DNA from: a bacterium
GTDB taxonomy: Bacteria; Patescibacteriota; Patescibacteriia; Patescibacteriales; UBA12465
Direction of reading: 5' to 3'
DNA length: 64,000 nucleotides
Assembly: GCA_035402985.1 (NCBI GenBank)
Contig: DAONEH010000001.1
Coordinates: forward strand, 3,123-67,122
Both the position numbers and the translations under genes were made by a program. Below, piece after piece: positions 1,407-47,507 of the stretch (position 1 is its first letter; every line of letters begins with the position of its first letter). Below the pieces are notes generated by a model. It ran no database searches. It had not been told where the DNA came from and saw nothing but the letters and a program-made list of their open reading frames with translations.

Positions 1407-1776
1407 TGTTTTTTATTTTAATATCCGGATTATGATTATAGGCCGGAATTACGATATCAAAATCACCTAATGATTTTATATTTTTTTTAGTAAAATTAAC
1501 GGTTTCAATTTTAATACCCAAAGCATAAGCTAAAGCATTAGCCGTTAAAATTCCAATTCGAAGCGAAGTAAAACTATCTCCTTGATGAACCACTTTTATT
1601 TTATTTATTGATTTTAAACTACAATTGGCCAATTTCAATAATTTATCAATCGCCGGTAAAAGTTTTTCAGCTTGTTGACGACGAGCTAAAAATTTTTTTC
1701 TTTTAAAAACCAGCCCGTCTTTTTCCAGAATTAGTTCAATTTGATTATTATCGGAAGTATTAATAATTAAAATCAT
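1393..1776 (-). CDS. tsaB: TsaB-like (YeaZ) tRNA t6A biosynthesis protein, N-terminal domain only (127 aa)
   Basis: MILIINTSDNNQIELIL...LLPAIDKLL...DSFTSLRIGILTANALAYALGIKI matches the TsaB/YeaZ N-terminal ASKHA fold (MKILAIDTS...LLP.ID.LL...GPGSFTGVRIG...A.GLA.). It is about half the normal length, and its stop overlaps the start of the upstream gene by 14 nt. Confidence 0.65.
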   Translation of the reverse strand: MILIINTSDNNQIELILEKDGLVFKRKKFLARRQQAEKLLPAIDKLLKLANCSLKSINKIKVVHQGDSFTSLRIGILTANALAYALGIKIETVNFTKKNIKSLGDFDIVIPAYNHNPDIKIKNNEVV

Positions 1777-1830
1777 AAAATTATATTACTATAAAAGTAT
1801 AACATAATATAAACTTTTTAAAAAATATAA

Positions 1831-2790: not shown

Positions 2791-2795
2791 ATTTT

Positions 2796-4220
2796 TTATT
2801 CAATAACACTGCGACCATCCGGCAAATCCTTTACTTTATATCCACGTTGTTCTAATTTTATTCGGACTTCATCGGCTTTAGCAAAATCTTTATTTTGACG
2901 AGCTATGGATCGATCCTCCAATAATTTAATGATATCATCTGGATAATTATTATCTATCTTTTTATTATCTTTATTATCTAACAATGAAGAAAAATTTAAA
3001 GCCCAAACATTATCAAAATCTAAAAGAGTAGCTAACTTATCTTCGTTAGATAAATTTGATTTTAATATATCGGAAATTAAAGATAATGATTTAGGAGTAT
3101 TAAAATCATCTAATAATGCTTCTAAAAATTTATCTTTAAAAACAGAATCAATTTCCCCAACTTCAACTCCTAATTTTTCTATTTTATTATAAATACCAGT
3201 TAAGCCTTTTTGCGCTGCTTTTAAAGCTTCAAAAGTAAAATTCTGTTTAGAACGATAATGAGCTTGTAAATAGAAATAACGTAAGGCCATTGGAGAAAAA
3301 TTTTTATTAATAATATCTTCTAAAGCAAAAGAAGTTCCTTGAGATTTAGACATTTTACCATTATCAATTAAAAGATGTTCATTATGTAACCAATAATTAG
3401 CTAATTTAACACCGCTCACAGCTTCACTTTGAGCAATTTCGTTACTATGATGAATACTTACATGTTCAATTCCACCCATATGAATATCAATAGTTTCTCC
3501 TAATAATTTTCTAATCATCGCCGAACATTCAATATGCCAACCTGGAAAACCATTACCATTTTCAACTAAAGGTGAAACAAAAGGTGATGGCCAAAATTGT
3601 AAAGCATTTTTATGAACACCGGCTCTAAAAAACCAAACAGCAAAATCTTGTGGATTTTTTTTCTTAGGATCATCAATTGCCGCTCGACCAGCTCCAATTT
3701 TATTCTTTTCTGGTTTACGACCTGATAATTGATTATAGTTTTTAAATTTATCAACTTCAAAATAAACAGCTAAGTCAGTAACATAAGCATAAGATTTAGC
3801 AATTAATAATTGAACCATATCAATCATCTCAGAAATATTTTCGGTAGCTCGTGGTTTAAATTTTGGTTCTAAAATATTTAATTTTTTTGTATCTTGCTCA
3901 TAAATATTAATAAATTTATTAACCACCTCTTCTGGCTTAATATTTTCTTTTTTAGCTGTTTTTTCTATTTTATCCTCCCCGATATCAGCATCAGAAGTTA
4001 AATGACCAACATCAGTATAATTTCTCGCCATAGAAACATCATAATTTAAATATTTAAAAGTACGATGTATAATATCAGCACAAAAAGAACCTCGTAAATT
4101 TCCGATATGTTGAGTTGAATAAACGGTTGGTCCACAATAATAAAAAGAAAGATGACCAGGTTGAAGTGGTTTAAATTCTTCTTTCTTTTTAGTTAAAGTA
4201 TTATATAATAATATTTTCAT
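2796..4220 (-). CDS. cysS: Cysteinyl-tRNA synthetase
   Basis: HIGH-type motif CGPTVYSTQHIGNLRG, KMSKS (GKMSKSQG) and a CysRS-like anticodon-binding C-terminus are present. Confidence 0.9.
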   Translation of the reverse strand: MKILLYNTLTKKKEEFKPLQPGHLSFYYCGPTVYSTQHIGNLRGSFCADIIHRTFKYLNYDVSMARNYTDVGHLTSDADIGEDKIEKTAKKENIKPEEVVNKFINIYEQDTKKLNILEPKFKPRATENISEMIDMVQLLIAKSYAYVTDLAVYFEVDKFKNYNQLSGRKPEKNKIGAGRAAIDDPKKKNPQDFAVWFFRAGVHKNALQFWPSPFVSPLVENGNGFPGWHIECSAMIRKLLGETIDIHMGGIEHVSIHHSNEIAQSEAVSGVKLANYWLHNEHLLIDNGKMSKSQGTSFALEDIINKNFSPMALRYFYLQAHYRSKQNFTFEALKAAQKGLTGIYNKIEKLGVEVGEIDSVFKDKFLEALLDDFNTPKSLSLISDILKSNLSNEDKLATLLDFDNVWALNFSSLLDNKDNKKIDNNYPDDIIKLLEDRSIARQNKDFAKADEVRIKLEQRGYKVKDLPDGRSVIE

Positions 4221-28475: not shown

Positions 28476-28796
28476 ATGATACAACAAATAATCGCTCTAT
28501 TAATTTTAGTTTTTTTTATTTTAAAACTAACTATCCAATGGAGAAAAAAAACAATCAATATAAATGAATTTATTTTTTGGTTAATATTTTGGTTAATTGC
28601 TTCCCTGCTGATAATATTTATAAAACCAATTGATCAATTGGTTATAAATATGGGTTTTTCATCTTCTGGTATTAATTTAATTTTTTATGTTGCCGTTCTA
28701 TTATTATTCTATCTTATATTTAAAATGAGATTAAAAATGGTTAAATTAGAAAAAGATATTACTGATTTAAGTCGAGAATTAACTTTAAAAAAATAA
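28476..28796 (+). CDS. Small membrane protein, DUF2304-like
   Basis: It is ~106 aa with three TM segments and a C-terminal amphipathic helix, and it lies immediately downstream of a GtrB-like GT2. This is the typical DUF2304 arrangement. Confidence 0.5.
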   Translation: MIQQIIALLILVFFILKLTIQWRKKTININEFIFWLIFWLIASLLIIFIKPIDQLVINMGFSSSGINLIFYVAVLLLFYLIFKMRLKMVKLEKDITDLSRELTLKK

Positions 28797-28854
28797 AAAA
28801 TATTTTAAGATAATTTTATTATTCTATTATTTTATTATATCTTATTTTGTCTAC

Positions 28855-28886
28855 AAAAAAGTGGGCATTTAGTGTCCACTTTTTAG
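28855..28886 (+). terminator. Hairpin terminator after the GT2/DUF2304 pair
   Basis: aaaaagtgg gcatttagtgt ccacttttt is a 9-bp stem with flanking A and T runs. Confidence 0.5.
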
Positions 28887-28999
28887 GGTACAGTTCATTT
28901 GGATCTATTTTTATAATATGATCAAATTAGGGGGAGCGGACAGACGGCGATGGAGAGATATAACTTGGCAAACATCGGATAAAATTCCTTAGATCAATA

Positions 29000-29650
29000 T
29001 TATTTCTCCAAAATCAAGTCTCCGGTAGATAACGCTGCTTCATGGGAAGCGCAGCGTGGCCATGGCTGTCCTAAAACATTCTTTGAATCAAAAATAAATA
29101 TAAAACAATCTCCGGGGGGAACCTTACCATAATTGTTTGTTAAAACAAGATCGAAATATTTCCACACGATGCGCGAATAAATAGACCAAGGCTTCATTGA
29201 TGTTTCAACTCTATGGTGTATTACATAAAGATTAGCTTTTTCCCCCTTACATAAATCACCAGATCGAAATTCACGCACCCCCGTTTCGGTTGGCACGCGA
29301 AGAATGTCTTTATATTCATTTGAAAATTCAAAAGATCCGCCAGCTGCGTCAAAAAATGAGCTTAACAAAATATCGTCAACATTTAAGGGTATACCGTCAG
29401 CAATAATGCTCCCTGATTTACTATGCGCAAATAAACCATTTCTTTTTATTTTCAATAATTCGGGGTCAGCTTTTAAAAATATTTCTTCACCGCAAGCAAA
29501 TATTCTATAATCAGTTCTTGATAAAATTTTTCTTTCTGTTAAAGTTTGATTTTTATTTTTTAACACCCAAAAAACAAATATTAATATAAATAATATTATC
29601 GAAATAACTATAATTCTTAATTTATGAATATTTTTTGTTGTCAGCTTCAT
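29000..29650 (-). CDS. Hypothetical membrane-anchored protein (216 aa), part of the higher-GC island
   Basis: It has an N-terminal signal anchor (LRIIVISIILFILIFVFWVL) and a ~180-aa ectodomain with four Cys. Local GC is 45-55% against ~28% genome-wide. It lies 2 nt downstream of the 322-aa gene. Confidence 0.5.
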   Translation of the reverse strand: MKLTTKNIHKLRIIVISIILFILIFVFWVLKNKNQTLTERKILSRTDYRIFACGEEIFLKADPELLKIKRNGLFAHSKSGSIIADGIPLNVDDILLSSFFDAAGGSFEFSNEYKDILRVPTETGVREFRSGDLCKGEKANLYVIHHRVETSMKPWSIYSRIVWKYFDLVLTNNYGKVPPGDCFIFIFDSKNVLGQPWPRCASHEAALSTGDLILEK

Positions 29651-29652
29651 AA

Positions 29653-30621
29653 TTAATCTATTATTTCAAGCACACCAATGCTTAAGAAATCTCCTTTGCG
29701 TGCTTTGATTAATTTATCATATATCTTATCCCATTTTTCAATTTCAGTTATTGTAATACATCCCAAAGAGCGGCTGCCAGTGTGCAGATATCTTTCGCCA
29801 TCATGGCCGACCCTAAACCAACTTTTGGCTCTAAACGATCTATTCTCATAATGCCTTCCTCCAAGGTGAGGATAATCAGGAATCTCAATGTCATATAGTC
29901 CTTTCTTCCAAGATGTTTCTGTATAATCCGTGGCTTTATATTTTATATTACCTATAATCAGTTTTTTTTGAAAAATGGAATACTGGAGATGAATTAAAGG
30001 TTTATGTTTTACATCGGCCAAAAGCCGTGAATTACTATTGTTTGCATTATCTAGACTAACAGAAGCTTTTTGCCCCCTATAGGGACCTTCTAAAATCGTA
30101 AAATATTCGCGCCCACTCTCAACATACCCTAATTGTACTTTTAAAAAGGCAGGAAGAGAAACAGTCTCGCCACTTGTAATTTTAACTTTGAGCCAACCAT
30201 TATTAACATCGGGGATATACCTTATTGTTTCTGTGACCAAGGCCTCAATCGTAACTTCAAAAATAGCAGTAGACTTGCCCCAGGTCTTGCCAAAACGATT
30301 TTCGCGAAGCTCAATATTATAGGTGAAATTCTGCGGCCTAACGTCATCCGTATCGACTTTAATTGTCTTTTCTGTCTTCCCAATATCATTAAATAATATA
30401 TCTTTTTCTGCAATAGTGATTTTTACTTTGGTAGAAAATGTTTTTTGGTCAGAGGGAAAATCACCTATCGCTTGACTGAATTCGACGGTTTTTCTAGCCT
30501 GTATCCTTTTATCGGCGCGCAAGATCTTGTCCAATAATTCTATATCAATACGGATGTCGTTACCAATCGATTTACCTGTATATTTTATTTTTATCAGTTT
30601 AAATTGAATTTTTTTAAGCAT
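29653..30621 (-). CDS. Hypothetical protein (322 aa) with C-terminal His/Cys motif reminiscent of the L,D-transpeptidase (YkuD)-like fold
   Basis: The N-terminal ~200 aa is beta-rich. The C-terminus is HLGGRHYENRSFRAKSWFRVGHDGERYLHTGSRSLGCITITEIEKWDKIYDKLIKARKGDFLSIGVLEI. LHTG...SLGCIT resembles H-G-[ST]...S-H-G-C-[IV]-R of Ldt catalytic domains, with shorter spacing. It has no signal peptide and higher GC. Confidence 0.45.
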   Translation of the reverse strand: MLKKIQFKLIKIKYTGKSIGNDIRIDIELLDKILRADKRIQARKTVEFSQAIGDFPSDQKTFSTKVKITIAEKDILFNDIGKTEKTIKVDTDDVRPQNFTYNIELRENRFGKTWGKSTAIFEVTIEALVTETIRYIPDVNNGWLKVKITSGETVSLPAFLKVQLGYVESGREYFTILEGPYRGQKASVSLDNANNSNSRLLADVKHKPLIHLQYSIFQKKLIIGNIKYKATDYTETSWKKGLYDIEIPDYPHLGGRHYENRSFRAKSWFRVGHDGERYLHTGSRSLGCITITEIEKWDKIYDKLIKARKGDFLSIGVLEIID

Positions 30622-30644
30622 ACAGATTTTTATTTTTTAAATTT

Positions 30645-31115
30645 TTATACATTTTGTCCATTTAATATCGACTGTAGTTCCTTGACTTTTATCAATAGAG
30701 TTTTAGCATCTGTATGGGCTTGACCTAGTTCTGCCTCCGAAATTCCGATAAAATCACCATATTCGATCCTATTTCTTTTCTTTCTCATTTGTTGGAATCT
30801 TTGAAATTCATTACTGAGTTCGCCGTTAAGCAAAATGGCGGCAGCATTGATTACAATATAATGATGTCCTTCTCCACTTGTTTTCGCTCTATATCCGTTA
30901 ATTAACAATATAGCTTCACAGCATAATCTTATAGAATCATAGATGTTATTATACACAATATCCTCATCCCCAGTACCTATCCCGGACAAATTTTTATTTG
31001 CAAAATTATATAACCTGTCAGCCTTCTCAATTTTTATTTCAACCCCTTTTAAGCTGAACGAAAAAGGCTCAATAGAATTATTATTTAATAATGTTTGAAT
31101 CTCTTGTAAAATCAT
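30645..31115 (-). CDS. HEPN-domain protein (putative toxin of a HEPN/MNT pair)
   Basis: It is ~156 aa and all-helical, partnered with and overlapping by 35 nt an upstream minimal nucleotidyltransferase. The R-x4-6-H region reads RKKRNRIEYGD, with Y where the canonical H would sit. Confidence 0.65.
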   Translation of the reverse strand: MILQEIQTLLNNNSIEPFSFSLKGVEIKIEKADRLYNFANKNLSGIGTGDEDIVYNNIYDSIRLCCEAILLINGYRAKTSGEGHHYIVINAAAILLNGELSNEFQRFQQMRKKRNRIEYGDFIGISEAELGQAHTDAKTLLIKVKELQSILNGQNV

Positions 31116-31668
31116 ACGGGCTTCCTTTTAATTTAATTATTGGAGATAAAAATATATTAGATATAAAATTATTTTTTTCTTTGATTTTTTTAACAATTTC
31201 TTGACTACTGTAAATATGATAATTTATCTCTCTAGCAATTTTCCCTTCTAACGAACTTATCATGGTAATAAGGGCGTCTTGGTTTATATTTCCAATCAAC
31301 ATTAAATCAATATCGCTATTATTATTTTCTGTTCCCTTGGCTATTGATCCAAAAATAAAAGCACATTCAACATTATCAAGTTTATCAACTAACTTTTTCA
31401 ATTCATTTTCTAAACCAGATGTTTTTGAAATAATGCTTTTTATTTCTTCATAAAGCGGGTGTTCTTTATTTAATCTAAAAAAACGCATATTCCCGCGACG
31501 CTCATCTAATAATATCTTATCTTCCACTAAATTATCTAAATATTTTTGATAATGGCTTGGCTCTTTATTTAGATTTTTAGCGATTTCTCTAAAATAGTAT
31601 TCTTTGTCTGGATTTTTAAAAAATAACTCCATGATTTCTCCGCCGCCCTTTTTTAAAAAATTTAGCAT
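31081..31668 (-). CDS. Nucleotidyltransferase (MNT) with N-terminal winged HTH (putative antitoxin)
   Basis: FIFGSIAKGTENNNSDIDLMLIG is the minimal NTase motif GS-x9-13-D[IL]D. An N-terminal wHTH (YFREIAKNLNKEPSHYQKYLDNLVEDKIL) is also present. Confidence 0.8.
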   Translation of the reverse strand: MLNFLKKGGGEIMELFFKNPDKEYYFREIAKNLNKEPSHYQKYLDNLVEDKILLDERRGNMRFFRLNKEHPLYEEIKSIISKTSGLENELKKLVDKLDNVECAFIFGSIAKGTENNNSDIDLMLIGNINQDALITMISSLEGKIAREINYHIYSSQEIVKKIKEKNNFISNIFLSPIIKLKGSPYDFTRDSNIIK

Positions 31669-31866
31669 AAAATATGTTTAATAATTATTCCTGGTTATAT
31701 TATACACGATTTATATACAATTGTACATACTTTTTATACGATGGTTAATATTCGTCAATAATTACACGTTTATCAAGAAAAAAATTAAATTATCCTAAAA
31801 TTTCCGCCCACTTCTCAATTCCCACAATAATCTCACTAAAATTTTGATAAATCTCGGAGCGTAGGA

Positions 31867-33876
31867 CTACTTAATAAATCTAAAAATATAAAGTTTACCC
31901 TCATCAATACTATAATAATCATCAGCTACTGCTTTCATTTCTTCAATTATTTTATCAAAAGCCCACCAATAATCATTAACGACTACTAAACATTCATCCG
32001 CTCCAGTTTTATCTAATAAGTCCTTAGCTAATTCTTTATCAGGATTAGCTATTATTTTTAAATAATAATCATATAATAATCCACCAGTTTGAACCGAATA
32101 ATAAAACCAAGAATCATAATAACGTTTAAAACCATATTCTTTGATAGCGGCTGCCCCCACCTGCTGATTAGCTAAAACTATATAATTATCATTAATTTTA
32201 TGCTCTTCAATATGTTTAACAGTTGAAAAATCGGATTGAGACACAGAAAAAGATCGAGAATTAAAATAATTATCTTTACGTGGATAATTAAGATATAAAG
32301 AAACAAGACATAGGACACCAAGAAATATTAATAATATAATTTTAAATATTCTAGCTTCCTTCTCTATTTTTTTTAATAAACAAACAAACATATCATAAAA
32401 AACTGGAACTAAAAATAAGAAAGAAATTATTAAAATCCGCTTAGCATAAGAATCTTTATCCACGGCACTTAAAAAAGGAAAATCAATAAAAGAACTCAAT
32501 ATATAAGAAAATATTAAAGCTAAAGAATTAAAAAAGAAAATTTTTAATTCCGGACGACCTTTTTTAAAAACAAAAAAGGTTATTATGATAAACAATAATA
32601 ATAGCCACCAATTATTATTAGAACCAAAAAAATAAATAAAATTAAGAAATATATTTTCTTGTCCTAAAAAATTAAAAGACCATTTTGAAAAATCAAAACT
32701 TCCAATTGAAAAACGTCCACCAATTATAATTAAAAGAATTGGTAAAATAATAATTTGTCCTAAATAACTTAAAATTTTACCTAATTTTAAAAATTTAATT
32801 GGTATTCTACTTGTTTCTAATTTATTTAAAAATAATATAAAAACAAAAATAATGGCTGGAATACCAGCTAAGGGATGAATAAAAAATATACTTAAAGCTA
32901 TGGAGAATAAAAAAATAAAATTATACCGATTAGCAATAAAGTATTTATTAAATGAAAACAATATTAAAATAATCAGGAATAAAAAAGATAAATTTTGTGG
33001 AACGGTATAAGTAAAAATAGAAAATGGTAATAATAAAAAGATTATTAAAGGCCAAATTATTTTATTATACCCTCTGTTTCTAAAATTAAACCAAAAAGTT
33101 AGAGGAATTAAAATAGCTGATAATACTGGTACTAATAATTTATTTATTAAACCAATTGATAAAGGTAAAATTTTAAAAAGCGATAATTCTAAAACATATT
33201 GACCTATATAATAAATTGTTTTAGGCTCAATTAAACCAGTTGACAAAATATCAATCATGGCTCGCTCATGAAGAAGTTGATCATAACCAAAAGCTATTTT
33301 ATAAATAAAAACAGAAATAGAAAAAAATAAAAAATACCATAAAATTATAAAAAGATAAGACCAAGAGTTTTTTTGATAAAAACTTAAAAATATTAATCCA
33401 ATTAAAAGACCAATTAATACCCAAAAATACCAAGGAAGAAAAAACCAGGGTGAAGCTATAGCTCCTAAACTTCCAGCTTTAAACAATACAAAAAACAAAT
33501 AAGCAAAAATAATAAAGATACCAGCTGAAATAATTATTTTTAATCCTTTATTTTTTTTCTTTAAAGTATCTAACTCTATTTTATCAATTTCTTGCTGATT
33601 AGGACGAGAAATGATAAAATATATAAACAGACCAGTAAAAAATAAGGCTAAAATTAAAGAAATTAAAGCTGTTAAATTATTAAAACGATAAAAATAATAA
33701 ATAATTGAAGCGTTATTTATAAACAACGATAAAAATAATAATCCAATTATTAACCAATTTCTTTTGCTATAATGTAATATTTTATTAATAGTCATACTTA
33801 TATAATATACCATAATATATGAAAATTGCCCAAGTAGTTTGTGTTTACCCACCCTATGCCGGTGGAATTGGAACAT
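31867..33876 (-). CDS. Large polytopic membrane protein (>=12 TM) with C-terminal soluble domain; probable GT-C-type glycosyltransferase (ArnT/PMT-like)
   Basis: The architecture is ~450 aa of TM helices followed by a ~200-aa C-terminal globular domain. It sits in a GT-rich, polyprenyl-P-sugar context. The likely true start is downstream (MTINKIL..., ~33795), because the annotated 5' end overlaps the divergent GT1 start. Confidence 0.45.
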   Translation of the reverse strand: MFQFHRHRVGKHKLLGQFSYIMVYYISMTINKILHYSKRNWLIIGLLFLSLFINNASIIYYFYRFNNLTALISLILALFFTGLFIYFIISRPNQQEIDKIELDTLKKKNKGLKIIISAGIFIIFAYLFFVLFKAGSLGAIASPWFFLPWYFWVLIGLLIGLIFLSFYQKNSWSYLFIILWYFLFFSISVFIYKIAFGYDQLLHERAMIDILSTGLIEPKTIYYIGQYVLELSLFKILPLSIGLINKLLVPVLSAILIPLTFWFNFRNRGYNKIIWPLIIFLLLPFSIFTYTVPQNLSFLFLIILILFSFNKYFIANRYNFIFLFSIALSIFFIHPLAGIPAIIFVFILFLNKLETSRIPIKFLKLGKILSYLGQIIILPILLIIIGGRFSIGSFDFSKWSFNFLGQENIFLNFIYFFGSNNNWWLLLLFIIITFFVFKKGRPELKIFFFNSLALIFSYILSSFIDFPFLSAVDKDSYAKRILIISFLFLVPVFYDMFVCLLKKIEKEARIFKIILLIFLGVLCLVSLYLNYPRKDNYFNSRSFSVSQSDFSTVKHIEEHKINDNYIVLANQQVGAAAIKEYGFKRYYDSWFYYSVQTGGLLYDYYLKIIANPDKELAKDLLDKTGADECLVVVNDYWWAFDKIIEEMKAVADDYYSIDEGKLYIFRFIK

Positions 33877-34922
33877 CAGCCCAAAAATTACAAAAAATAT
33901 TATCTGACCAACACGAAGTTTTTGTTTTTACCCCAATTAATAAAAATAAAAATAATAATAATTTGGAAAATAATATCATTCGATTAAAACCAAGCTTAAA
34001 ATTAGGCCATGGAGCCATCCTTTGTTCCCTACTTAAAAAACTAAAAAACTTTGATTTAATATATTTTCATTATCCTTTTTTTGGCACCGGAATAATAATA
34101 TGGTTATTTAAAATTTTTAATCCTCAAAAAAAACTAATTATCCAATACCACATGGATGTTAGACAAAAAAATATTATTTATAAAATATTGAGTTGGCCTG
34201 AAGAAATTATTAAAAAATCATTATTTAAAAAAGCTGATTTAATAATAGTAGCTTCTTTAGATTATATTAAACACAGTAAAATAAAAAATATTTATCAAAA
34301 ATATCAATCTAAATTTAAAGAAATTCCTTTTTCCGTTGATACTAATAAATTTAAACCAAATACTAATCAAATAATAAAAGATAATATTATATTATTTGTA
34401 GGAGGATTAGACAAAGCTCATTATTTTAAAGGAGTTGATATTTTAATTCAGGCGGTTAATTTAATTAAAGATCAAGATTATATATTAAAAATAGCTGGTA
34501 CTGGTCAATTAGCTAAGGATTATAAAAAATTAACTCAGGAATTAAAAATTGATAATAAAGTAATATTTTTAGGAAAACTTAATGAAAATGAATTAATAGC
34601 AAATTATCAAAATGCCAAAGTTTTAGTTTTGCCATCTATTAATAATAATGAAGCTTTTGGTATTGTTTTGATAGAAGCGATGGCTTGTGGTACTCCCGTT
34701 ATTGCTTCTAATTTACCTGGGGTTCGTTTAGTGTTTGAAGATAAAATATCAGGTTTCCAAACAGAAGTAAAAAATATTATTGATTTAAAAAATAAACTAG
34801 AAATTATTTTAGCTGATGATATTTCTCTTAACATGGGCCAAAAAGCTCAGCAATTGGTTAAAGAAAAATATTCTGATATAGTAGTAAGTTCTAAAATACT
34901 AAATTTAATAAATTCTTTATGA
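33819..34922 (+). CDS. Glycosyltransferase family 1 (GT4-type)
   Basis: EAFGIVLIEAMACGTPVIASN is present. The TGA stop overlaps the next ATG (ATGA). Confidence 0.85.
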   Translation: MKIAQVVCVYPPYAGGIGTSAQKLQKILSDQHEVFVFTPINKNKNNNNLENNIIRLKPSLKLGHGAILCSLLKKLKNFDLIYFHYPFFGTGIIIWLFKIFNPQKKLIIQYHMDVRQKNIIYKILSWPEEIIKKSLFKKADLIIVASLDYIKHSKIKNIYQKYQSKFKEIPFSVDTNKFKPNTNQIIKDNIILFVGGLDKAHYFKGVDILIQAVNLIKDQDYILKIAGTGQLAKDYKKLTQELKIDNKVIFLGKLNENELIANYQNAKVLVLPSINNNEAFGIVLIEAMACGTPVIASNLPGVRLVFEDKISGFQTEVKNIIDLKNKLEIILADDISLNMGQKAQQLVKEKYSDIVVSSKILNLINSL

Positions 34923-36055
34923 AAATAGCTATTATAAATAATCTATATCAACCATATAATAAAGGTGGGGCTGAAAAAAATTGTCAAAAATTAATAAATG
35001 AAGCTCAGGCTCAAGGTCATGATTGTTTTATTATCACCACTAAACCCAAAAAAGAAACTAAAATAAATTATGATCCTCGAACCTATTATTTACCCTCTAA
35101 TTATTATTTCTTAAAAAAAACTACTATTATTTATCGCCTATTTTGGCAAATAGCTAATATTTTTAATTTTTTTCGAGGTCCACAATTAAAAAAAATATTA
35201 ATAACCGAAAAACCAGATATAATTATTACTCATAATTTAATGGGTATTGGCATAAGAAGTTTTAAAATTATAAAAAAATTAAAAATAAAACAAATACATA
35301 TTCTTCATGATATTCAATTATTTTATCCTTCTGGTTTAATGTTTTATGGACAAGAAAAAAAAGTAAATTCATTACCAGCTAAACTTTATCAACTAATTAA
35401 TCGAAATTTAGTGGGTTCACCTGATTTAATTGTGTCACCCTCTAAGTGGTTACTTACCGAACATACAAAAAGAAAATTCTTTGAATCTAGTCATAAAATT
35501 ATTTTAAAAAATCCAGTAGATAATACTAGAGAAAATAATATTGAAAGAAATATACCAAAGAATAAATATACTTTTTTATTTATTGGCCAAATTGAATTAC
35601 ATAAAGGTATATTATTTTTAATTAATACTTTTAAAAAAATACCTAATGATAATATAATATTAAATATAGTTGGCCAGGGTAGTTTATTAAATCAAGCTAA
35701 AAAAATAGCTCAAACTGATAAAAGAATTAATTTTTTAGGTTTTAATAATGATATTGAAATAGAACAATTAAAAACTAGTGATTGTTTAATAGTTCCCTCC
35801 TGGTGTTATGAAAATTCACCAACCGTTATTTATAATGCTTTAAATTATAATCTACCAATCATTGCTTCTAATTTAGGTGGTATTCCAGAATTATTTACCA
35901 ATCAATCAGGTTTATTATTTACACCTAAAGACGAGTTAGATTTAATAAATAAAATAAACGAATATTTAAATAATCCTACTTCTTTTATTTATAATAAAAA
36001 ACCGGTTGAAACCGGTTATTTAACAGAAATATTAAAAAATATATCTAGAGATTAA
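34919..36055 (+). CDS. Glycosyltransferase family 1 (GT4-type)
   Basis: The N-terminus MKIAIINNLYQPYNKGGAEK is typical of GT4 enzymes, and ENSPTVIYNALNYNLPIIASNLGG lies in the C-terminal domain. Confidence 0.8.
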   Translation: MKIAIINNLYQPYNKGGAEKNCQKLINEAQAQGHDCFIITTKPKKETKINYDPRTYYLPSNYYFLKKTTIIYRLFWQIANIFNFFRGPQLKKILITEKPDIIITHNLMGIGIRSFKIIKKLKIKQIHILHDIQLFYPSGLMFYGQEKKVNSLPAKLYQLINRNLVGSPDLIVSPSKWLLTEHTKRKFFESSHKIILKNPVDNTRENNIERNIPKNKYTFLFIGQIELHKGILFLINTFKKIPNDNIILNIVGQGSLLNQAKKIAQTDKRINFLGFNNDIEIEQLKTSDCLIVPSWCYENSPTVIYNALNYNLPIIASNLGGIPELFTNQSGLLFTPKDELDLINKINEYLNNPTSFIYNKKPVETGYLTEILKNISRD

Positions 36056-42694: not shown

Positions 42695-43908
42695 AAATTA
42701 TTAATTTCTTTTAATGTTTCCTGGGCACATTTACGCCAACTAAAATTACTAACCAAAGATTTACCTCTATTTATTAAATCCATTTTTAAATTATCATCAT
42801 TAACAATCATCACCATTTTTTCAGCTAAATCATTAGGATCAAGATGATCAAAAAATAAAGCTGAATCTTGAGCAATTTCATGAAAAACTTCAATGTTTGA
42901 TAATAATACCGGAGTTTCACAGGCCATCGCTTGAAGGATAGGAATACCAAAACCTTCATAAAATGATGGAAAAATAAAAGCCTCGGCTTTATTAACAATA
43001 TAAGGTAAATCTTCTTCTTCCACCCAACCTAAAATAATTACATCTTTATAAATACCTAATTCTTCAATTAGGTATTTTATTTCATCATAACAAAAACCAG
43101 GATTACCAATTAAAACTAATTTTTTAGATAAATCTTTATTATTCTCTTTAAAAATAGAAAAACTTTCTATTAAACAATGAACATTTTTCTTTTTTTCTAA
43201 ACGACCAATATATAAAAAGAATGATGTATCAATACCATATTTTTTTAAAACATTTTCTAAAGCCTCTTCATCTGTTATTTTTTTATACAAATAATTATTA
43301 TAACCATTATAAATAACTTTTATTTTTTTACCTTTAATTTTTCTATAATACTTTAAAATTTCATTTTTAGTAAAATTAGAAACTGTAATTATTTTTTTAG
43401 CATAACGTAAGGCAAATTTAGTAGACCAATTAAGATAATCGGTAGATTTAAAATTATAACGACCCAAAGAAAACAAACGAATAAAAAAATTAATAATTTT
43501 ATTACGAAGAGAAAAACTATTATTAATAATATTTTCATTATATAAATTATTATTTTCCATAAAAGCAATGTCATGAATAGTATTAATAGTTTTTTTAGGA
43601 GAAAATAAAGGTAAAACATGGGCTGGAACAAAAAGAACATCGGGACGATTAAAAATCATCTCTAGTGTTAAACGACCTAGAGTCCACATATATTTAAAAG
43701 GCCATTTTAAATATTTAATTTTAACATTAGTATGACGACTTAAATCTAAATCAAATAAAAAAGCCTGATTTAAAGGCTTATCGGTATATAAAATATAATT
43801 ATTTTCTAAGTCAATTTCAATTAAATTAATAATTAAATAATAAGAATACCATTCAGTTCCAGTTTTGAAACTGCGGTTAGCTCGTGAAGCATCTATTCCT
43901 ATTATCAT
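42691..43908 (-). CDS. Glycosyltransferase family 1 (GT4-type)
   Basis: EGFGIPILQAMACETPVLLSN is present. It overlaps the downstream gene by 4 nt. Confidence 0.8.
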   Translation of the reverse strand: MIIGIDASRANRSFKTGTEWYSYYLIINLIEIDLENNYILYTDKPLNQAFLFDLDLSRHTNVKIKYLKWPFKYMWTLGRLTLEMIFNRPDVLFVPAHVLPLFSPKKTINTIHDIAFMENNNLYNENIINNSFSLRNKIINFFIRLFSLGRYNFKSTDYLNWSTKFALRYAKKIITVSNFTKNEILKYYRKIKGKKIKVIYNGYNNYLYKKITDEEALENVLKKYGIDTSFFLYIGRLEKKKNVHCLIESFSIFKENNKDLSKKLVLIGNPGFCYDEIKYLIEELGIYKDVIILGWVEEEDLPYIVNKAEAFIFPSFYEGFGIPILQAMACETPVLLSNIEVFHEIAQDSALFFDHLDPNDLAEKMVMIVNDDNLKMDLINRGKSLVSNFSWRKCAQETLKEINNL

Positions 43909-43912
43909 ATTA

Positions 43913-44926
43913 TTATTTAGCTGCCAAAATACTTCGTTTGTAAGAATCTAAATTATCCAGAGCAATTCCCGTTCCTTTAGCTACACATAATAAAGGATCA
44001 TCAGCTATATAAGCCGAAACACCCAAGGCTCGAGCAAATAATTGATCAATATTTCTAAGTAAAGCTGTTCCTCCTGTTAAAACAATTCCTTTATCAATTA
44101 TATCAGCTACTAATTCCGGCGGAGTTTGTTGAAGTATTTTTTTAGCTGTATTTAAAATAATTTCTAATTCTCCCGAAATAGCTGCAGTTACATCATTGCT
44201 ATTAACTTCAATAGTTTTAGGCAGTCCACTAACACCATCACGACCATTTATTTCCATAATTAATTGACTATCATCATCTAAGAATAAAGCTGAACCAACT
44301 TTAATTTTCATTTCTTCAGCGGTTCTCTCTCCAATAACTAAACCATATTTTTTTCTAACATATTCTAAAATAGCCAAATCTAATTTATTACCACCAACTC
44401 GAACCGAAGTCGAAGAAACAACACCTCCTAAAGATATAACCGCCATTTCGGAAGTACCACCGCCAATATCAACTACCATATGGCCCGTAGCTGAACTAAT
44501 AGGTATATTAGCTCCAATAGCAGCGGCAATTGGTTCTTTAACAATATAAGCCGCCTTAGCTCCAGCCGCAATAGTAGCTTCAATTACCGCTCGTCTTTCT
44601 GTTGAAGAAATTCCAGCTGGAACAGCTACCATAACTTCTGGTCTAAATATTCTAACCTTTCCTAATGTTTTATTAATAAAATAACGAATCATTGCTTCAG
44701 TAGTTCGATAATCAGCAATAACTCCCTCTTTTAGAGGTTTTAAGGCTACAATAGTATCAGGAGTACGTCCTAACATATCTTTGGCTTCATTACCAACAGC
44801 TAATACTTTATTATCATCAACCGATACAGCTACAACACTAGGTTCATTAATAACCACACCCCTTTTAGGCATATAAACTAAGGTATAAGTTGTACCTAAA
44901 TCAATTCCTATTCTTTTTACCATCAT
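43913..44926 (-). CDS. mreB: MreB-like actin homolog (second paralog)
   Basis: IGIDLGTTYTLVY, DIGGGTSE and the whole-length ASKHA actin fold are present. It is distinct from the mreB at 53010. Confidence 0.85.
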   Translation of the reverse strand: MMVKRIGIDLGTTYTLVYMPKRGVVINEPSVVAVSVDDNKVLAVGNEAKDMLGRTPDTIVALKPLKEGVIADYRTTEAMIRYFINKTLGKVRIFRPEVMVAVPAGISSTERRAVIEATIAAGAKAAYIVKEPIAAAIGANIPISSATGHMVVDIGGGTSEMAVISLGGVVSSTSVRVGGNKLDLAILEYVRKKYGLVIGERTAEEMKIKVGSALFLDDDSQLIMEINGRDGVSGLPKTIEVNSNDVTAAISGELEIILNTAKKILQQTPPELVADIIDKGIVLTGGTALLRNIDQLFARALGVSAYIADDPLLCVAKGTGIALDNLDSYKRSILAAK

Positions 44927-44988
44927 ATATTTAAACTTTAATATAAATATATATTAACCTGTTATAATTTTTTAGTCAATAAATTATA

Positions 44989-46245
44989 TTAATCCCGTCT
45001 TAAAGCTTCAACTGGATCAAGTTTTCCGGCTTTTCTAGCTGGTAATAAACCAAATAAAACTCCAAATAATAAAGCAAATAAAGTTGCGACAATAAAAGAT
45101 TTAATTGGTACTATAAATTTCCATTCTAAACCAAAATAATTAGCTATTAAATAAATAAAGAAAGAAAAAATAACCCCTAAGATAATACCAATAACAGCTC
45201 CAATAAATGTTATTAAAATTGATTCAATTAAAAATTGTTGCATTATATCAGAAAATTTAGCTCCAACCGCTTTACGTAAACCAATTTCTGGAGTTCTCTC
45301 GGAAACAATAACATACATCACATTTAAAATTCCAACACCACCCACTATTAATGATATAGCTACAATTAATAATAATAAAATAGTTAAAGCATTAGTAATT
45401 GTTTTAGTAGTTGCAAGCATTTCTTTCATAGTTGTCACTCTAAAATCATCTTTGACTGGATCAGAAATATCATGATTTTCTCTTAAAATTTCTCGAATTA
45501 AATCAGCTGTCTCTTCAGATTTTTCTGGATCAACTAATTTATGAACGGAATACATATAATAATCAATTCCCATCATTTTCTTTTGTAAAGTTTTTACTGG
45601 CAATAAAATTAAATCATCAAAGTCAAAACCCATAGTAGCTCCCTTTTCTTTTAATAAGCCAATAACTTGATAACGTCCTCGTTGAATAGTAATACTTTTT
45701 CCAATAGGATTTTCATCACCAAATAATTTTTTAGCAATTTTAGGACCAAGAACTGCTACTTGAGCTAAAGAATCATTTTCAGCTTCAGAAAAAAAATAAC
45801 CTTGATCTATTTCAGATTTATCAATATTTATATAATCAGAACCTACACCCATTATTAATCCCTGTCTAGTTTCATTTAAATAAGTAACGGGAGCTTGATT
45901 AGTTATAGAACCATAACCACCAGAAATATTTTCTAATTTATTAATTTCTTCTAAGTCTTCCTCTTTCAAAGATGTTACCTGAATTCCACTAGCTAAACTA
46001 GTAGCACTCTCGGCATCTCCTTCTCTTCCGGTTTTAGTGCTTGGAACTTTAACTTCTACTTCAATTATATCCGTACCAAAAGATTCAATTTGACCAACAA
46101 TTAAACTTCGAATTCCTTCACCCGCTGAAAAAACAATAATAATACTAGAAATTCCAATCACCATACCTAAAACTGTTAAAGCTGTACGCATTTTGTTCTT
46201 TAACATTGATAAAAATGACAATCTAACAATATCTTTTATTCTCAT
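44989..46245 (-). CDS. ABC transporter permease, MacB/FtsX family
   Basis: It has an N-terminal TM, a large periplasmic domain, and a C-terminal FtsX 3-TM bundle (ERTPEIGLRKAVGA). Confidence 0.8.
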   Translation of the reverse strand: MRIKDIVRLSFLSMLKNKMRTALTVLGMVIGISSIIIVFSAGEGIRSLIVGQIESFGTDIIEVEVKVPSTKTGREGDAESATSLASGIQVTSLKEEDLEEINKLENISGGYGSITNQAPVTYLNETRQGLIMGVGSDYINIDKSEIDQGYFFSEAENDSLAQVAVLGPKIAKKLFGDENPIGKSITIQRGRYQVIGLLKEKGATMGFDFDDLILLPVKTLQKKMMGIDYYMYSVHKLVDPEKSEETADLIREILRENHDISDPVKDDFRVTTMKEMLATTKTITNALTILLLLIVAISLIVGGVGILNVMYVIVSERTPEIGLRKAVGAKFSDIMQQFLIESILITFIGAVIGIILGVIFSFFIYLIANYFGLEWKFIVPIKSFIVATLFALLFGVLFGLLPARKAGKLDPVEALRRD

Positions 46246-46250
46246 AAAAT

Positions 46251-47507
46251 TTATTCATAATTTAAAGCTTCAACCGGCTCTAATTTACTAGCTTTTTTAG
46301 CTGGATAAATTCCAAAAATTAATCCAATTAATCCTGAAACAACAACCGCCATAAATATTGACCAAAAACTAACTATAAAAACCCAATCATAACCTAAGGT
46401 TGTTATAATCACCGATAATAACCAAGAAATCATAATTCCTAAAATAATTCCAATAAAACCACCAATAGAAGTTAAAAAAATAGATTCAATTAAAAATTGA
46501 CTAATAATATTTTTATTAGATGCTCCCAGAGCTTTACGTACACCTATTTCTCTAGTTCTTTCATTAACACTTATAAGCATAATATTCATAATGCCAATAC
46601 CACCAACAATTAAAGATAAGCTAGCCATTAAAGCTAAAAAATATTTTAAAGCATCAGTAACCGAAGAAATTAAATCTAATAATTCTGTTATACTTCTAAC
46701 TGAAAAATCATCACTCGCTCCAGTTTGATCTTTAATATTATGATTATCACGTAAAATATTTTCTACTTCCGAAATAACAGAATCAACTTCAAAAGCTTCA
46801 TTGGTTTTAAAACTAATAACATTAACATAATCTATTCCTACTAAAACTTTTTGCATAGTTTTAATTGGTAATAAAACTTTATCATCATAATTTTGAAAAG
46901 CTACTTGACCCCTTTCTTCAAATACTCCAATTACTTCAAAAACTTGTTTTTTTATTTTTATTCTTTTTCCAATCGCATCACTATCAGAAAATAATTCTTG
47001 TTTAACATTACTACCTAGTATCACTACTTTACTAATATTATTAATTTCTTCTTCGGTAAAAAATCGACCAGCCGATAAATTACCACCCTCAACTTCTAAA
47101 TAATCTTCAGTTACCCCTTCTAAACTAGCATCGTAAGAATTATTTTTGTAAGTTAAAGTTCCGTTGCCATCAACATAAGCTACAGCCGAATCAACTCCAA
47201 TAGCATCTTTGGCTTTTTCAATTGATTTTAAATCATCTAGATTTAATGAAGTTACTACTATTCCTAAAACTGAAGTTGGTGGACCACTTTCATCAGATTT
47301 TCCTGGAGTAATAGAAACAACATTAGATCCAATACTTTGAACTTGACCTAAAATTAAACTTTGAGCTCCAGCTCCCAGTGACATAATTATAATTACTGAA
47401 GCTACGCCAATAACAATACCTAGCATAGTTAAAAAACTCCTAACCTTATTAGTTAGAAGAGCTTTAATAGAAGTTCTAATGGCTTGTTTAAATGATAAAT
47501 AATTCAT
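46251..47507 (-). CDS. ABC transporter permease, MacB/FtsX family (paralog)
   Basis: It has the same architecture, with ERTREIGVRKALGA. Confidence 0.8.
   Translation of the reverse strand: MNYLSFKQAIRTSIKALLTNKVRSFLTMLGIVIGVASVIIIMSLGAGAQSLILGQVQSIGSNVVSITPGKSDESGPPTSVLGIVVTSLNLDDLKSIEKAKDAIGVDSAVAYVDGNGTLTYKNNSYDASLEGVTEDYLEVEGGNLSAGRFFTEEEINNISKVVILGSNVKQELFSDSDAIGKRIKIKKQVFEVIGVFEERGQVAFQNYDDKVLLPIKTMQKVLVGIDYVNVISFKTNEAFEVDSVISEVENILRDNHNIKDQTGASDDFSVRSITELLDLISSVTDALKYFLALMASLSLIVGGIGIMNIMLISVNERTREIGVRKALGASNKNIISQFLIESIFLTSIGGFIGIILGIMISWLLSVIITTLGYDWVFIVSFWSIFMAVVVSGLIGLIFGIYPAKKASKLEPVEALNYE

Follow-up and report, generated by a model that had tools for sequence, protein, structure and literature searches.

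The window, that is, the whole 64-kb stretch of DNA analyzed here, contains four adjacent minus-strand genes that encode a winged-helix nucleotidyltransferase (wHTH-MNT), a HEPN protein, a 322-aa protein and a 216-aa protein (Table 1). As described earlier, the MNT and HEPN genes overlap by 35 nt, and gaps of 23 nt and 2 nt separate the HEPN gene from the 322-aa protein gene and the latter from the 216-aa protein gene. This spacing suggests that the four genes are cotranscribed as an operon. No Shine-Dalgarno sequence was visible before the starts of the 322-aa and 216-aa proteins, and the spacing is therefore the sole guide to the coupling of these two genes. The GT-C gene upstream of the cassette, which the preliminary description had called divergent, lies on the same strand and is codirectional.

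Table 1. Features of the cassette and its borders (window coordinates)
Feature	Position	Strand	Remark
wHTH-MNT gene	31081..31668	-	195 aa
HEPN gene	30645..31115	-	156 aa
322-aa protein gene	29653..30621	-	322 aa
N-terminal C2-like domain of the 322-aa protein	30229..30621	-	aa 1-131; eight-stranded β-sandwich fold
C-terminal Tlde1/YkuD-fold Cys-His peptidase domain of the 322-aa protein	29656..30228	-	aa 132-322
Residue codons of the C-terminal domain	H252 29866-29868; H280 29782-29784; S285-L-G287-C288 29758-29769	-
216-aa protein gene	29000..29650	-	216 aa
N-terminal membrane anchor of the 216-aa protein	29561-29614	-	aa 13-30
Variable inserted segment	28807..31865	-	relative to syntenic relatives
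Four-gene cassette as transferable DNA unit	28992..31878	-	single continuous blastn match, ~2.9 kb
Spacer unique to the window, with GC-rich patch at ~28930-28960	28892..28991		few matches to other cassettes
Hairpin, A-run on one side and T-run on the other	28855..28886		-11.6 kcal/mol, z -2.74
Conserved intergenic repeat (~80-94 nt), 5' cassette edge	31785..31878	-	repeats across loci; holds a promoter-like site
Second promoter-like site, TGTACA-17-TATAAT	31699..31727	-	consensus scan; 31 nt upstream of the MNT start
GT-C gene	31867-33876	-	upstream of cassette

The hairpin proposed earlier downstream of the cassette does fold. Its flanks, an A-run and a T-run, would allow it to end transcription from either side, and a role as a bidirectional intrinsic terminator, shared by the cassette and the convergent DUF2304 gene, is plausible. 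At the opposite edge, the conserved repeat holds a promoter-like TTGAGA-18-GATAAT sequence according to the consensus scan. The promoter scan of the region returned 27 sites compared with 22.9 ± 5.9 in shuffled sequences, which is no excess. The repeat is present in one copy in the window and in many copies in related loci, and in loci L004, L017 and L020 it flanks the cassette at either end. Its interpretation as a structured RNA was rejected (no Rfam match; RNAalifold energy of -2.6 kcal/mol with one compensatory pair), as was an attC-like site (no obvious inverted repeat).

Backbone DNA homology to the syntenic relatives L087, L090 and L091 stops at position 28806 and restarts at 31866. Outside these junctions, the DUF2304, MraY and GT-C products of L087/L090 share 94%, 92% and 73-79% identity, respectively, with those of the window. 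Between them, none of the four cassette genes was found in the syntenic relatives, which carry a 250-aa ORF, an HTH and Fic/Doc pair, or an IS3-type transposase at the same site. The GT-C/DUF2304 junctions lacking the insert that the preliminary description had proposed to look for thus exist, with other cargo in its place, and the site between these two genes appears to be a hotspot for accessory genes. The cassette itself was detected by blastn, at 72-87% identity and between other flanks, in L001, L004, L015-L017, L020, L023, L026 and L027. At least 10 other species-level loci carry cassette DNA of this similarity with flanks that are different or far more diverged, and at least 11 species-level loci keep the geometry of the four-gene block unchanged. 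The break in syntenic homology and the lack of the four genes in relatives independently confirm the island status, and these comparisons of sequence indicate that the segment is a horizontally acquired composite cassette, in agreement with the earlier proposal.

The composition of the segment points in the same direction as previously suggested, but less strongly. The mean GC content is 32.3% versus 26.6% for the window, and the segment ranks at the top of all 2.7-kb stretches in the window. The GC content of 40 to 55% given earlier is reached only in short patches (up to 41-43% over 100 nt, and 53% in one 60-nt stretch), and the MNT gene is at background level (26.2%). The GC3 of the four cassette genes (0.21-0.31) is two to three times that of eight flanking genes (0.08-0.15), and the tetranucleotide distance of the segment has a z of 2.4, ranking 7th among 245 windows. 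The spacer between the hairpin and the cassette has no match in the backbone relatives and none in Rfam; in other cassettes, only positions 28969-29010 (42 nt) are matched in L014/L015 and positions from 28977 onward in L021.

The 195-aa MNT matches Pfam Polbeta (E 2.3e-11) and PADLOC PDC-M05A (E 3.8e-48), with weak winged-helix/ArsR matches over aa 11-106. Its NTase motif G-S-x(9-13)-D-x-D is intact, and the residues G107-S108-x10-D119-x-D121 are invariant across 10 homologs. The 156-aa HEPN protein matches PDC-M05B (E 1.2e-12), and its match to Pfam HEPN is below the cut-off (E 0.021; 15.4 bits, cut-off 22). The earlier assignments of both proteins are borne out by these matches. With both profiles matched by adjacent genes, the two are predicted to constitute a PDC-M05-type toxin-antitoxin pair, in which the wHTH-MNT is the predicted antitoxin and regulator and the HEPN protein the predicted toxin partner. 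As in the MNT-HEPN (HepT/MntA, type VII) systems, the gene pair overlaps, GSx10DxD is intact and the PDC-M05A/B matches are strong. Unlike in those systems, the MNT has an N-terminal winged helix and scores 30 bits against the NCBIfam MntA antitoxin equivalog, below the cut-off of 60, and two more genes follow the pair in the subclade of the window. The HEPN protein also differs, in that the canonical Rx4-6H RNase motif is absent and an invariant R111-K-K-R114-N115-x-I-E-Y119 (N-R/Q-I-E-Y at 115-119) is present, i.e., RNxIEY with Tyr119 where the His is expected. Since the canonical catalytic His is missing, this module may not be an active RNase toxin.

The 322-aa protein consists of two domains. 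The N-terminal domain has the fold of an eight-stranded C2 β-sandwich, with no Pfam C2 match at E <= 1. It contains an invariant E72-x-D74-x3-N78-D79-x-G motif, which we take to resemble the C2 'D-x-D...D-x-G' loop. There is no signal peptide; the first 20 residues form a β-strand of this domain and include no hydrophobic stretch. The C-terminal domain has the L,D-transpeptidase (YkuD-type) fold. H252, H280, G287 and C288 are invariant over the family of 697 cluster representatives, and the motifs H280-x7-C288 and S285-L-G287-C288-I are conserved, with Leu or Ala in place of the second His of 'SHGC'. PF10908 (Tlde1_dom) is matched with 12.9 bits (E 0.15) by the full protein and 13.8 bits by the catalytic domain, below the cut-off of 30.1, and it is matched by 13 of 25 stand-alone relatives at subthreshold or borderline scores (best E 1.3e-6). 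Searches of PDB sequences with profiles A1 and A7 gave noise or nothing, and PF03734 was not matched. The link to the Tlde1 family is drawn from the fold comparison together with the weak Pfam matches, and the short His-Cys spacing is that reported for DUF2778 (10.1101/2020.02.18.954545; PMC9638812). The fold can be assigned with confidence to the Tlde1/L,D-transpeptidase toxins, which gives a family to the Ldt-like His/Cys enzyme that the preliminary description had put forward for checking against Pfam and PDB. Pfam matches to S4_2, GET2, tubulin and others were treated as noise. C288 would act as the nucleophile together with H280 and possibly H252, and the predicted reaction is cleavage or exchange of the 3-4 L,D linkage in the stem peptides of peptidoglycan.

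The 216-aa protein has a 20- to 24-residue uncharged N-terminal span with a positive N-flank and an ectodomain with four invariant Cys residues (C53, C134, C182 and C200), as expected from its earlier description as a signal-anchored, Cys-rich protein. The ectodomain does not resemble any known immunity family. In about 60 loci, the partner genes encode N-terminally membrane-anchored, Cys-containing proteins of three unrelated classes (A, B and C), to one of which the 216-aa protein belongs. Remote homology among the three was rejected (hhalign probabilities of 1.5-8%); a class D proved to be duplicated class A (99.9%). Of the four proteins, the partner usually shows the lowest conservation; in L004, for example, identity to the window is 96% for MNT, 95.5% for HEPN, 76% for the 322-aa protein and 62% for the 216-aa protein. 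The partner class does not cleanly track the catalytic-domain lineage, as would be the case if toxin and immunity were swapped together: unrelated classes accompany catalytic domains that are 70-80% identical in L040 versus L045 and in L018 versus the clade of the window.

The family of the 322-aa protein is sizeable and was formerly unannotated; it comprises 394 clusters at a threshold of 90% identity and 697 cluster representatives at one of 50%. The scan of 185,579 species genomes yielded 74 loci, with several copies in some genomes. The enzyme and its anchored partner are conserved together in about 60 loci of many CPR lineages. A partner with an N-terminal TM helix follows essentially every full-length homolog on the same strand within 0-40 nt (mostly 0-10), and the pairing occurs outside CPR too (L095). 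A decayed enzyme gene lies beside an intact partner in L079, L080, L082/L083, L085 and L086, and an intact enzyme without a partner is rare.

The MNT/HEPN genes, in contrast, are attached in one subclade of the enzyme family only. The enzyme occurs without them in L013, L019, L021, L025 and L029: in L013, a nearly identical enzyme gene has an unrelated 427-aa gene upstream, and L021, L025 and L029 have no NTase module. Conversely, MNT/HEPN occurs without the enzyme pair in L110, where both of its genes are intact despite deletion of the enzyme gene and truncation of the partner, and in L108, where a sister MNT/HEPN lineage has another downstream gene. Because each persists without the other across loci, the cassette is composed of two separable modules. 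The linkage with HEPN-MNT claimed earlier therefore holds within one subclade, whereas the enzyme-partner pair, also found elsewhere without MNT/HEPN, is the conserved unit, and the four genes cannot be regarded as an indivisible whole.

This separability bears on the possibility that all four genes form a single abortive-infection system, in which MNT/HEPN would sense infection or stress and the C2-YkuD protein and its partner would damage the wall or lyse the infected cell. The constant geometry of the four-gene block agrees with such a system, and PADLOC lists MNT/HEPN as the defense candidate PDC-M05, although an antiviral role of PDC-M05 is unconfirmed (PMC12988326). In independent lineages, NTase/HEPN-type modules lie directly upstream of the enzyme on the same strand (MNT and HepT in L063; AbiEii in L019/L022, L028, L037 and L043), and three cluster representatives from outside CPR (P0266, P0286 and P0297; Pfam confirms HepT in P0266) are fusions of HepT with the full C2-YkuD protein. 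An exported partner follows in P0266, the only one of these loci examined. Accessory islands tend to gather toxin-antitoxin modules anyway, however, and an enzyme located in the cytoplasm has to be exported before it can act on the wall. Together with the loci that carry either module alone, this makes a single four-gene defense system unlikely.

Relatives of the catalytic domain are found in toxin-type fusions. It is placed behind eCIS_core/DUF4157, a marker of eCIS toxin N-termini (PMC8213781), in P0293, P0295, P0318 and P0324, as a homologous C-terminal toxin domain (~38% identity), and P0324 lies in a full eCIS gene cluster. Fusions of the domain with a peptidoglycan amidase (Amidase_3) and with Peptidase_C70 occur as well, and some of its stand-alone relatives have a signal peptide. 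Unlike the eCIS toxins, the window protein has a C2-like domain instead of DUF4157, with no contractile-injection genes nearby. No secretion-system family was found among the neighbors in L001-L012 or, for 53 loci, in the genes upstream, and no delivery system for a leaderless effector was found in the window or the CPR loci; membership in an eCIS cluster is confined to distant relatives.

The conserved pairing, the toxin-type fusions, the retention of orphan partners and the usually faster divergence of the partner argue for an effector/immunity system. We favor, with modest confidence, the explanation that the segment combines a toxin-antitoxin module with an effector/immunity pair directed against peptidoglycan and that the two move together. 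Among the functions suggested earlier, effector-immunity and cell-wall targeting are thereby best supported, but not as a property of all four genes. In this model, the wHTH of MNT would autoregulate the upstream promoter, and MNT/HEPN would stabilize the cassette or act as a stress or phage switch. The C2-like domain could serve in membrane binding, targeting or delivery, the last being conjecture. The 216-aa protein, translated directly after the enzyme, would be held by its N-terminal anchor with a disulfide-type ectodomain facing the wall and is the probable immunity protein, neutralizing enzyme delivered from outside by sister cells or competitors. Several observations speak against this reading: neither a signal peptide nor any known trafficking domain is present in the 322-aa protein, no delivery system was found, the partner ectodomain is unlike known immunity families, the match to Tlde1_dom is far below the cut-off, Leu replaces the 'SHGC' His, the HEPN protein lacks the canonical His, and unrelated partners of catalytic domains that are 70-80% identical are unusual for strictly cognate immunity.

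The pair would work like Tlde1/Tldi1 (Tae5/Tai5; DUF2778, PF10908) of Salmonella and other Proteobacteria, in which a T6SS effector with L,D-carboxy/transpeptidase activity is matched by a periplasmic immunity protein. Both have the same L,D-transpeptidase fold with a catalytic Cys (predicted for C288) in an S-x-G-C-h motif and short His-Cys spacing, and in both the gene for a leaderless enzyme forms a bicistron with that for an exported partner (10.1101/2020.02.18.954545). Also shared are immunity proteins that are far more divergent than the effectors and belong to unrelated families, orphan immunity genes, and recruitment of the catalytic domain as the C-terminal module of polymorphic toxins (10.1101/2020.02.18.954545; PMC9638812). 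Unlike Tlde1, the window protein matches PF10908 below the cut-off, has a catalytic module of ~190 aa with the extra invariant H252 and with Leu in place of the second 'SHGC' His, and carries the added N-terminal C2-like domain. Its partner differs from Tldi1 in the TM-helix anchor, in an unrelated β-grasp-like fold and in the position of its gene, which is downstream rather than upstream. Furthermore, the host is a CPR/Patescibacteria member without an outer membrane, no T6SS genes were seen in the loci, and the pair is tied to a toxin-antitoxin module in one subclade.

The enzyme might instead act on the host's own envelope, trimming or cross-linking peptidoglycan or its precursors at the membrane, where the C2-like domain could hold it. 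Alternatively, it might couple the anchored partner covalently to peptidoglycan via the C-terminal Lys of the partner, as Escherichia coli LdtA-C do with Braun's lipoprotein. A C-terminal Lys is present in 19 of 30 class A (63%) and 31 of 45 class B (69%) partners and in none of five class C partners, and the gene order in one clade is MurJ-(Y1 transposase-like)-enzyme. However, Lys is the last residue of 22-38% of all proteins in these AT-rich genomes, which makes it a weak hint of Lpp-like ligation or of a pseudosubstrate role. The wall and the partner ectodomain are outside the membrane, and the enzyme has no export signal. It also differs from canonical YkuD enzymes (Ldtfm, LdtMt2, Csd6, Pgp2, LdtA-C and DpaA) in lacking a signal peptide and a PF03734 match, in its shorter His-Cys spacing and in its accessory, mobile distribution. 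The small number of loci in the genome scan, their varying contexts, the multiple and decayed copies and the relatives that are cargo of injection systems make an own-envelope function improbable.

A leaderless wall enzyme followed after 2 nt by a ~216-aa protein with one N-terminal TM helix and a large outside domain could also be a phage-type lysis cassette, i.e., a leaderless endolysin and a holin-like single-pass partner whose topology presumably resembles that of phage T4 holin T. The search of 2.9 million viral contigs yielded one distant relative, a stand-alone domain by a serine recombinase with no lysis block, and there was no meaningful PHROG match. No phage genes surround the loci examined, and the retention of orphan partners is unlike a holin. 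A lysis function was rejected on the basis of the viral contig and PHROG searches and is very improbable.

An attached life on other microbes is assumed for CPR/Patescibacteria, and to our knowledge very few of their tools for attack or competition have been described. The enzyme-partner pair can be put forward as a concrete candidate effector/immunity system directed against peptidoglycan, in a phylum without the usual delivery machines. The leaderless enzyme and the lack of a delivery machine raise the question of how such effectors leave CPR cells. The comparisons also document a toxin-antitoxin-plus-effector cassette moving between CPR genomes and a hotspot for accessory genes.

The recurrence of HEPN modules with a cell wall toxin, including one fusion, points to a possible functional link. 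It is conceivable, but doubtful, that the C2-like domain marks a CPR-specific route by which leaderless wall enzymes enter host or competitor cells and that the HEPN/NTase pairing or fusion reflects functional coupling; an RNase could, for example, serve as a switch for releasing a peptidoglycan toxin altruistically or for activating it. The arrangement would then be no chance neighborhood, and episymbiotic bacteria would possess a weapon or defense system of a new class. The C2-like domain is also fused to an SH3-SLT lytic transglycosylase in P0341. In L056 and L110, another leaderless wall hydrolase family with a different N-terminus, followed by a TM-anchored protein, is present in the same islands.

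The four genes of the cassette were found on the minus strand at the positions first claimed; from MNT onward, successive genes overlap by 35 nt, then lie 23 nt and 2 nt apart. The GT-C gene, a backbone gene beside the cassette, had been described as divergent, but it lies upstream on the same strand and is co-directional. The hairpin reported between the cassette and the convergent DUF2304 gene was recovered (-11.6 kcal/mol, z -2.7). Because it is preceded by an A-run and followed by a T-run, this hairpin could end transcription from both sides. A spacer of ~100 nt (window 28892-28991) between the stop codon of the 216-aa gene and the hairpin contains a GC-rich patch (gggggagcggacagacggcgatggagag). 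It had no match in Rfam, and none in the backbone relatives or other cassettes except for 42 nt of its 3' end in loci L014/L015. A promoter scan of the region returned hexamers upstream of MNT, with no surplus of sites over shuffled sequence.

Features of the cassette and its surroundings, with copies of the intergenic repeat in other loci (window coordinates unless a locus is named)
Feature	Position	Strand	Remarks
MNT gene	31081-31668	minus	195 aa
HEPN gene	30645-31115	minus	156 aa
322-aa protein gene	29653-30621	minus	322 aa
216-aa protein gene	29000-29650	minus	216 aa
GT-C-like gene	31867-33876	minus	upstream of cassette, co-directional
DUF2304 gene	28476-28796	plus	convergent with cassette
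Promoter-like hexamers	31818-31789 and 31727-31699		in 198-nt spacer upstream of MNT; promoter scan
~80-nt repeat	31785-31878	minus	single copy, 5' edge of cassette
~80-nt repeat	L004 4738-4828, 7744-7836, 9856-9938
~80-nt repeat	L017 3828-3907, 4717-4810, 7671-7762
~80-nt repeat	L020 4757-4837, 7734-7781
~80-nt repeat	L019 and L022		several copies

The raised GC content of the preliminary description was borne out for the block as a whole (32.3% versus 26.6% for the window), which is the top-GC 2.7-kb stretch of the 64 kb; the values of 40-55% apply only to patches of ≤100 nt. By gene, GC was 35.6% (322-aa), 32.9% (216-aa), 32.5% (HEPN) and 26.2% (MNT). The clearest compositional signal is in third codon positions, with a GC3 of 0.21-0.31 in the four cassette genes compared to 0.08-0.15 in eight flanking genes. 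In tetranucleotide distance the cassette stands out only moderately (z 2.4, seventh of 245 windows). Deviations above that of the cassette (z up to 3.2) were seen at 31500-36000, which spans the GT-C and GT4 glycosyltransferase genes, and at 43750-47000, where GC is raised to ~30%.

Querying metagenomes with the GT-C protein retrieved relatives syntenic around the cassette site. The order GT4b-GT4a-GT-C ... DUF2304-GT2-137aa-MraY-FtsW is common to the window, L087 and L090, with proteins 73-94% identical, and the DNA of the relatives is alignable with the window to 28806 and then from 31866 onward. The cassette genes were found in none of the four relatives L087, L090, L091 and L093 (0/4), which confirms the insertion proposed for the DUF2304-to-GT-C junction; other cargo is present instead. 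L087 and L090 carry a 250-aa ORF without assigned function (L087 7444-8196), also present in L093. L091 carries a toxin-antitoxin pair of an HTH protein and Fic/Doc (633-1330), and L093 an IS3-type transposase plus two further ORFs, with a glycosyltransferase fragment at the site (487-3342). The junction is thus a hotspot for accessory genes. The insertion has gone to fixation in the source population: copies of the 216-aa protein with 100% identity occur on 18 contigs from several samples, with identical context at all places shown.

Window positions 28992-31878 have a continuous DNA match of 72-87% identity in L001, L004, L014-L017, L020, L023/24, L026 and L027. None of the flanks of these cassettes is related to those of the window. 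They form several groups, in which shared flank genes are merely 50-62% identical in protein, compared to 77-96% for the cassette MNT. A conserved cassette amid diverged or unrelated flanks is a signature of horizontal transfer, and together with the insertion relative to the syntenic relatives it supports the acquisition first suggested. Identity declines roughly from 5' to 3' along the cassette, the 216-aa partner usually being lowest; in L004 it is 96% for MNT, 95.5% for HEPN, 76% for the 322-aa protein and 62% for the 216-aa protein.

The cassette moves as a unit, yet it consists of two separable modules. The 322-aa gene of L013 is almost identical to that of L001 and follows an unrelated 427-aa gene. 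An AbiEii toxin gene replaces MNT/HEPN upstream of the enzyme gene in L019 and L022, and L021, L025 and L029 have the enzyme gene without the NTase module. Conversely, L110 kept MNT/HEPN (76% identity), lost the 322-aa gene and retains a 140-aa fragment of the 216-aa gene, and the next MNT/HEPN lineage (62%), that of L108, has an unrelated 646-aa gene downstream.

A conserved intergenic repeat of ~80 nt (consensus GTAGTCCTAAAGTCTGAAATTTCTCAAAATTTTGACGGGATTATTGGGGAAATTGAGAGGTGGGCGGAAATTTT) accompanies the cassette. In related genomes its copies have the cassette orientation throughout the oriented loci and bracket the cassette in several of them. Rfam gave no match and the consensus fold is weak; the repeat is a candidate promoter module, recombination site or mobile-element end. 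The titles of many public MAG records with the cassette (L014-L016, L018, L019, L021, L023, L024, L027-L029 and others) read 'uncultured Gammaproteobacteria' or 'Candidatus Saccharibacteria', and one protein is labelled Flavobacterium sp. Judged by sequence content, these taxon labels look like placeholders or errors.

The 322-aa protein matched no family above threshold in Pfam, NCBIfam or PADLOC. Its homologs make up 394 clusters, almost all of ~320 aa and none with a functional name; taxon-labelled homologs are mostly from Patescibacteria/CPR MAGs. Searching 1.84 billion cluster representatives with a profile yielded 697 relatives and revealed that positions ~130-320 form a module of their own, ~190 aa long. 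H252, H280, G287 and C288 are invariant in stand-alone members 32-44% identical to the window domain, and H273 is variable. Pfam Tlde1_dom was matched by 13 of 25 stand-alone members (best E 1.3e-6) and YkuD by one, in agreement with the Ldt-like His/Cys enzyme first proposed; the window protein itself scores only 12.9 bits against Tlde1_dom, over aa 279-309. Both the S-x-G-C-h motif and the close spacing of His and Cys agree with the published description of DUF2778/Tlde1 (10.1101/2020.02.18.954545; PMC9638812), except that Leu stands in place of the His before Gly-Cys. The invariant residues, domain matches and motif likeness point to a divergent sister family of Tlde1, outside PF10908 by Pfam's own criterion, and the protein probably works as a Tlde1-type enzyme. 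The family is large, unannotated and Tlde1-like, with a C2-like N-terminal domain.

In other lineages the catalytic domain apparently behaves as a toxin domain. It stands behind eCIS_core (DUF4157) in the cluster representatives P0293, P0295, P0318 and P0324, behind a C70 papain-like protease in P0281 and ahead of an N-acetylmuramoyl-L-alanine amidase in P0291. DUF4157 is an N-terminal marker of eCIS toxins, whose toxin domain is at the C-terminus (PMC8213781), and P0324 lies within a complete contractile-injection gene cluster (Pvc16_N, AAA ATPase, tube, spike, PAAR-like, gp25). Some stand-alone members have signal peptides (P0285, P0322). Phages all but lack the family: 2.9 million viral contigs gave one distant match, outside any lysis block, and there was no PHROG match. 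In P0341 the C2-like domain occurs without the catalytic domain, fused to SH3, an SLT lytic transglycosylase, a TM segment and FG-GAP.

The genome scan supplied 74 species-level loci for a survey of partners. Behind virtually every full-length homolog, a same-strand gene lies within 0-40 nt, mostly 0-10 nt, and its product has one N-terminal hydrophobic anchor. As far as hhalign detects, the partners form three mutually unrelated classes: A (~175 aa, 36 loci, including a duplicated form of ~340 aa), B (~216 aa, 22 loci, containing the 216-aa protein) and C (~245 aa, 5 loci, with a weak PdaC/DUF4163 match, E 3.5e-5). All classes have a positively charged N-flank and 2-4 Cys beyond the anchor. 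This is consistent with N-in, C-out insertion and a disulfide-bonded ectodomain, and accords with the signal-anchored, Cys-rich protein first described.

The conserved functional unit is this two-gene pair, most likely an effector with its immunity protein, a reading we hold with moderate confidence. A leaderless enzyme with an exported partner is the topology of Tlde1/Tldi1, and it recurs outside CPR beside the HepT fusion protein P0266. The partners change faster than the enzyme, and one effector family has several unrelated partner families, as reported for Tae5-7/Tai5-7. Intact partners persist beside enzyme remnants of 68 aa (L080, 218-aa class B), 57 aa (L082/L083, 244-aa class C), ~59 aa (L085, 175-aa class A) and 39 aa (L086, 257-aa class C), and beside a frameshifted enzyme (L079, class C); an intact enzyme gene without a partner is rare. 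Against the effector/immunity pair, partners of unrelated classes accompany catalytic domains that are 70-80% identical, and no delivery system for a leaderless protein was found in CPR.

MNT matches Pfam Polbeta/NTP_transf_2 and PADLOC PDC-M05A (E 3.8e-48), and the HEPN protein PDC-M05B (E 1.2e-12). With weak winged-helix matches at the MNT N-terminus, these support the original wHTH-MNT and HEPN assignments, although both proteins score under the respective NCBIfam MntA and Pfam HEPN cut-offs. PDC-M05 is a computational defence candidate of TA-like architecture with an unconfirmed antiviral role (PMC12988326). The NTase motif G107-S108-x10-D119-x-D121 is invariant. In the HEPN protein, R114-N-x-I-E-Y119 (window 30759-30776) is invariant and Tyr replaces the catalytic His of the canonical Rx4-6H; E82-G-H-H-Y86 is also invariant in the cassette lineage. 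Without an Rx4-6H motif and with a sub-cut-off score, its RNase competence is uncertain, and the HEPN proteins of this lineage may be inactive or have a different active site.

The linkage of the 322/216 pair with HEPN-MNT stood in part. Among the two nearest upstream genes at 53 non-redundant loci, MNT occurred in 11/53, AbiEii toxin in 5/53, MurJ in 5/53 and Fic in 2/53. Neighbour-joining placed the MNT/HEPN loci within two subclades of the class B clade and AbiEii at ≥3 separate places. The MurJ loci belong to one clade, a Y1-transposase-like gene intervening in 4/5. An unrelated MNT+HepT pair lies upstream of a homolog merely 45% identical (L063). The non-CPR proteins P0266, P0286 and P0297 (442-465 aa) have an N-terminal extension before a complete C2-YkuD protein. 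In P0266 Pfam identifies it as a HepT-like HEPN RNase domain, whose HepT-type 'GFRN...H' motif P0286 and P0297 share. In L095 (5001-6913), the gene after P0266 overlaps it by 4 nt and encodes a signal-peptide protein of 172 aa; no nearby MNT gene was seen. HEPN/NTase recurs beside the enzyme above our chance expectation, in counts uncorrected for phylogeny and for the general clustering of TA genes in accessory islands. Given these counts and the occurrence of each module without the other (L013, L019, L021, L022, L025, L029, L108, L110), we rank an obligate four-gene system as the main rival, though an unlikely one. The description of the segment as a horizontally acquired cassette of a TA-type MNT/HEPN pair, a putative cell-wall-targeting Cys-His enzyme and a membrane-anchored partner holds. 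This opens a testable route to inter-cellular weaponry and leaderless-effector export in CPR bacteria.

Besides P0341, leaderless cell-wall hydrolases of comparable layout were encountered in L056 (126-2267, 714 aa, SLT-like) and L110 (411 aa, Hydrolase_2). The L056 and L110 proteins have in common another conserved N-terminal region, 'SWWQN...DDDL...WNGN'. Behind the L110 gene comes one for a TM-anchored protein of 175 aa (2033-3809), and the decayed cassette copy lies immediately downstream. In L098 (99-2398), a gene 8 nt downstream of that for P0296, a stand-alone 194-aa member of the catalytic-domain family, encodes a 568-aa protein with a MACPF/perforin domain (Pfam E 4.5e-5), which suggests a pore-former paired with a wall enzyme.
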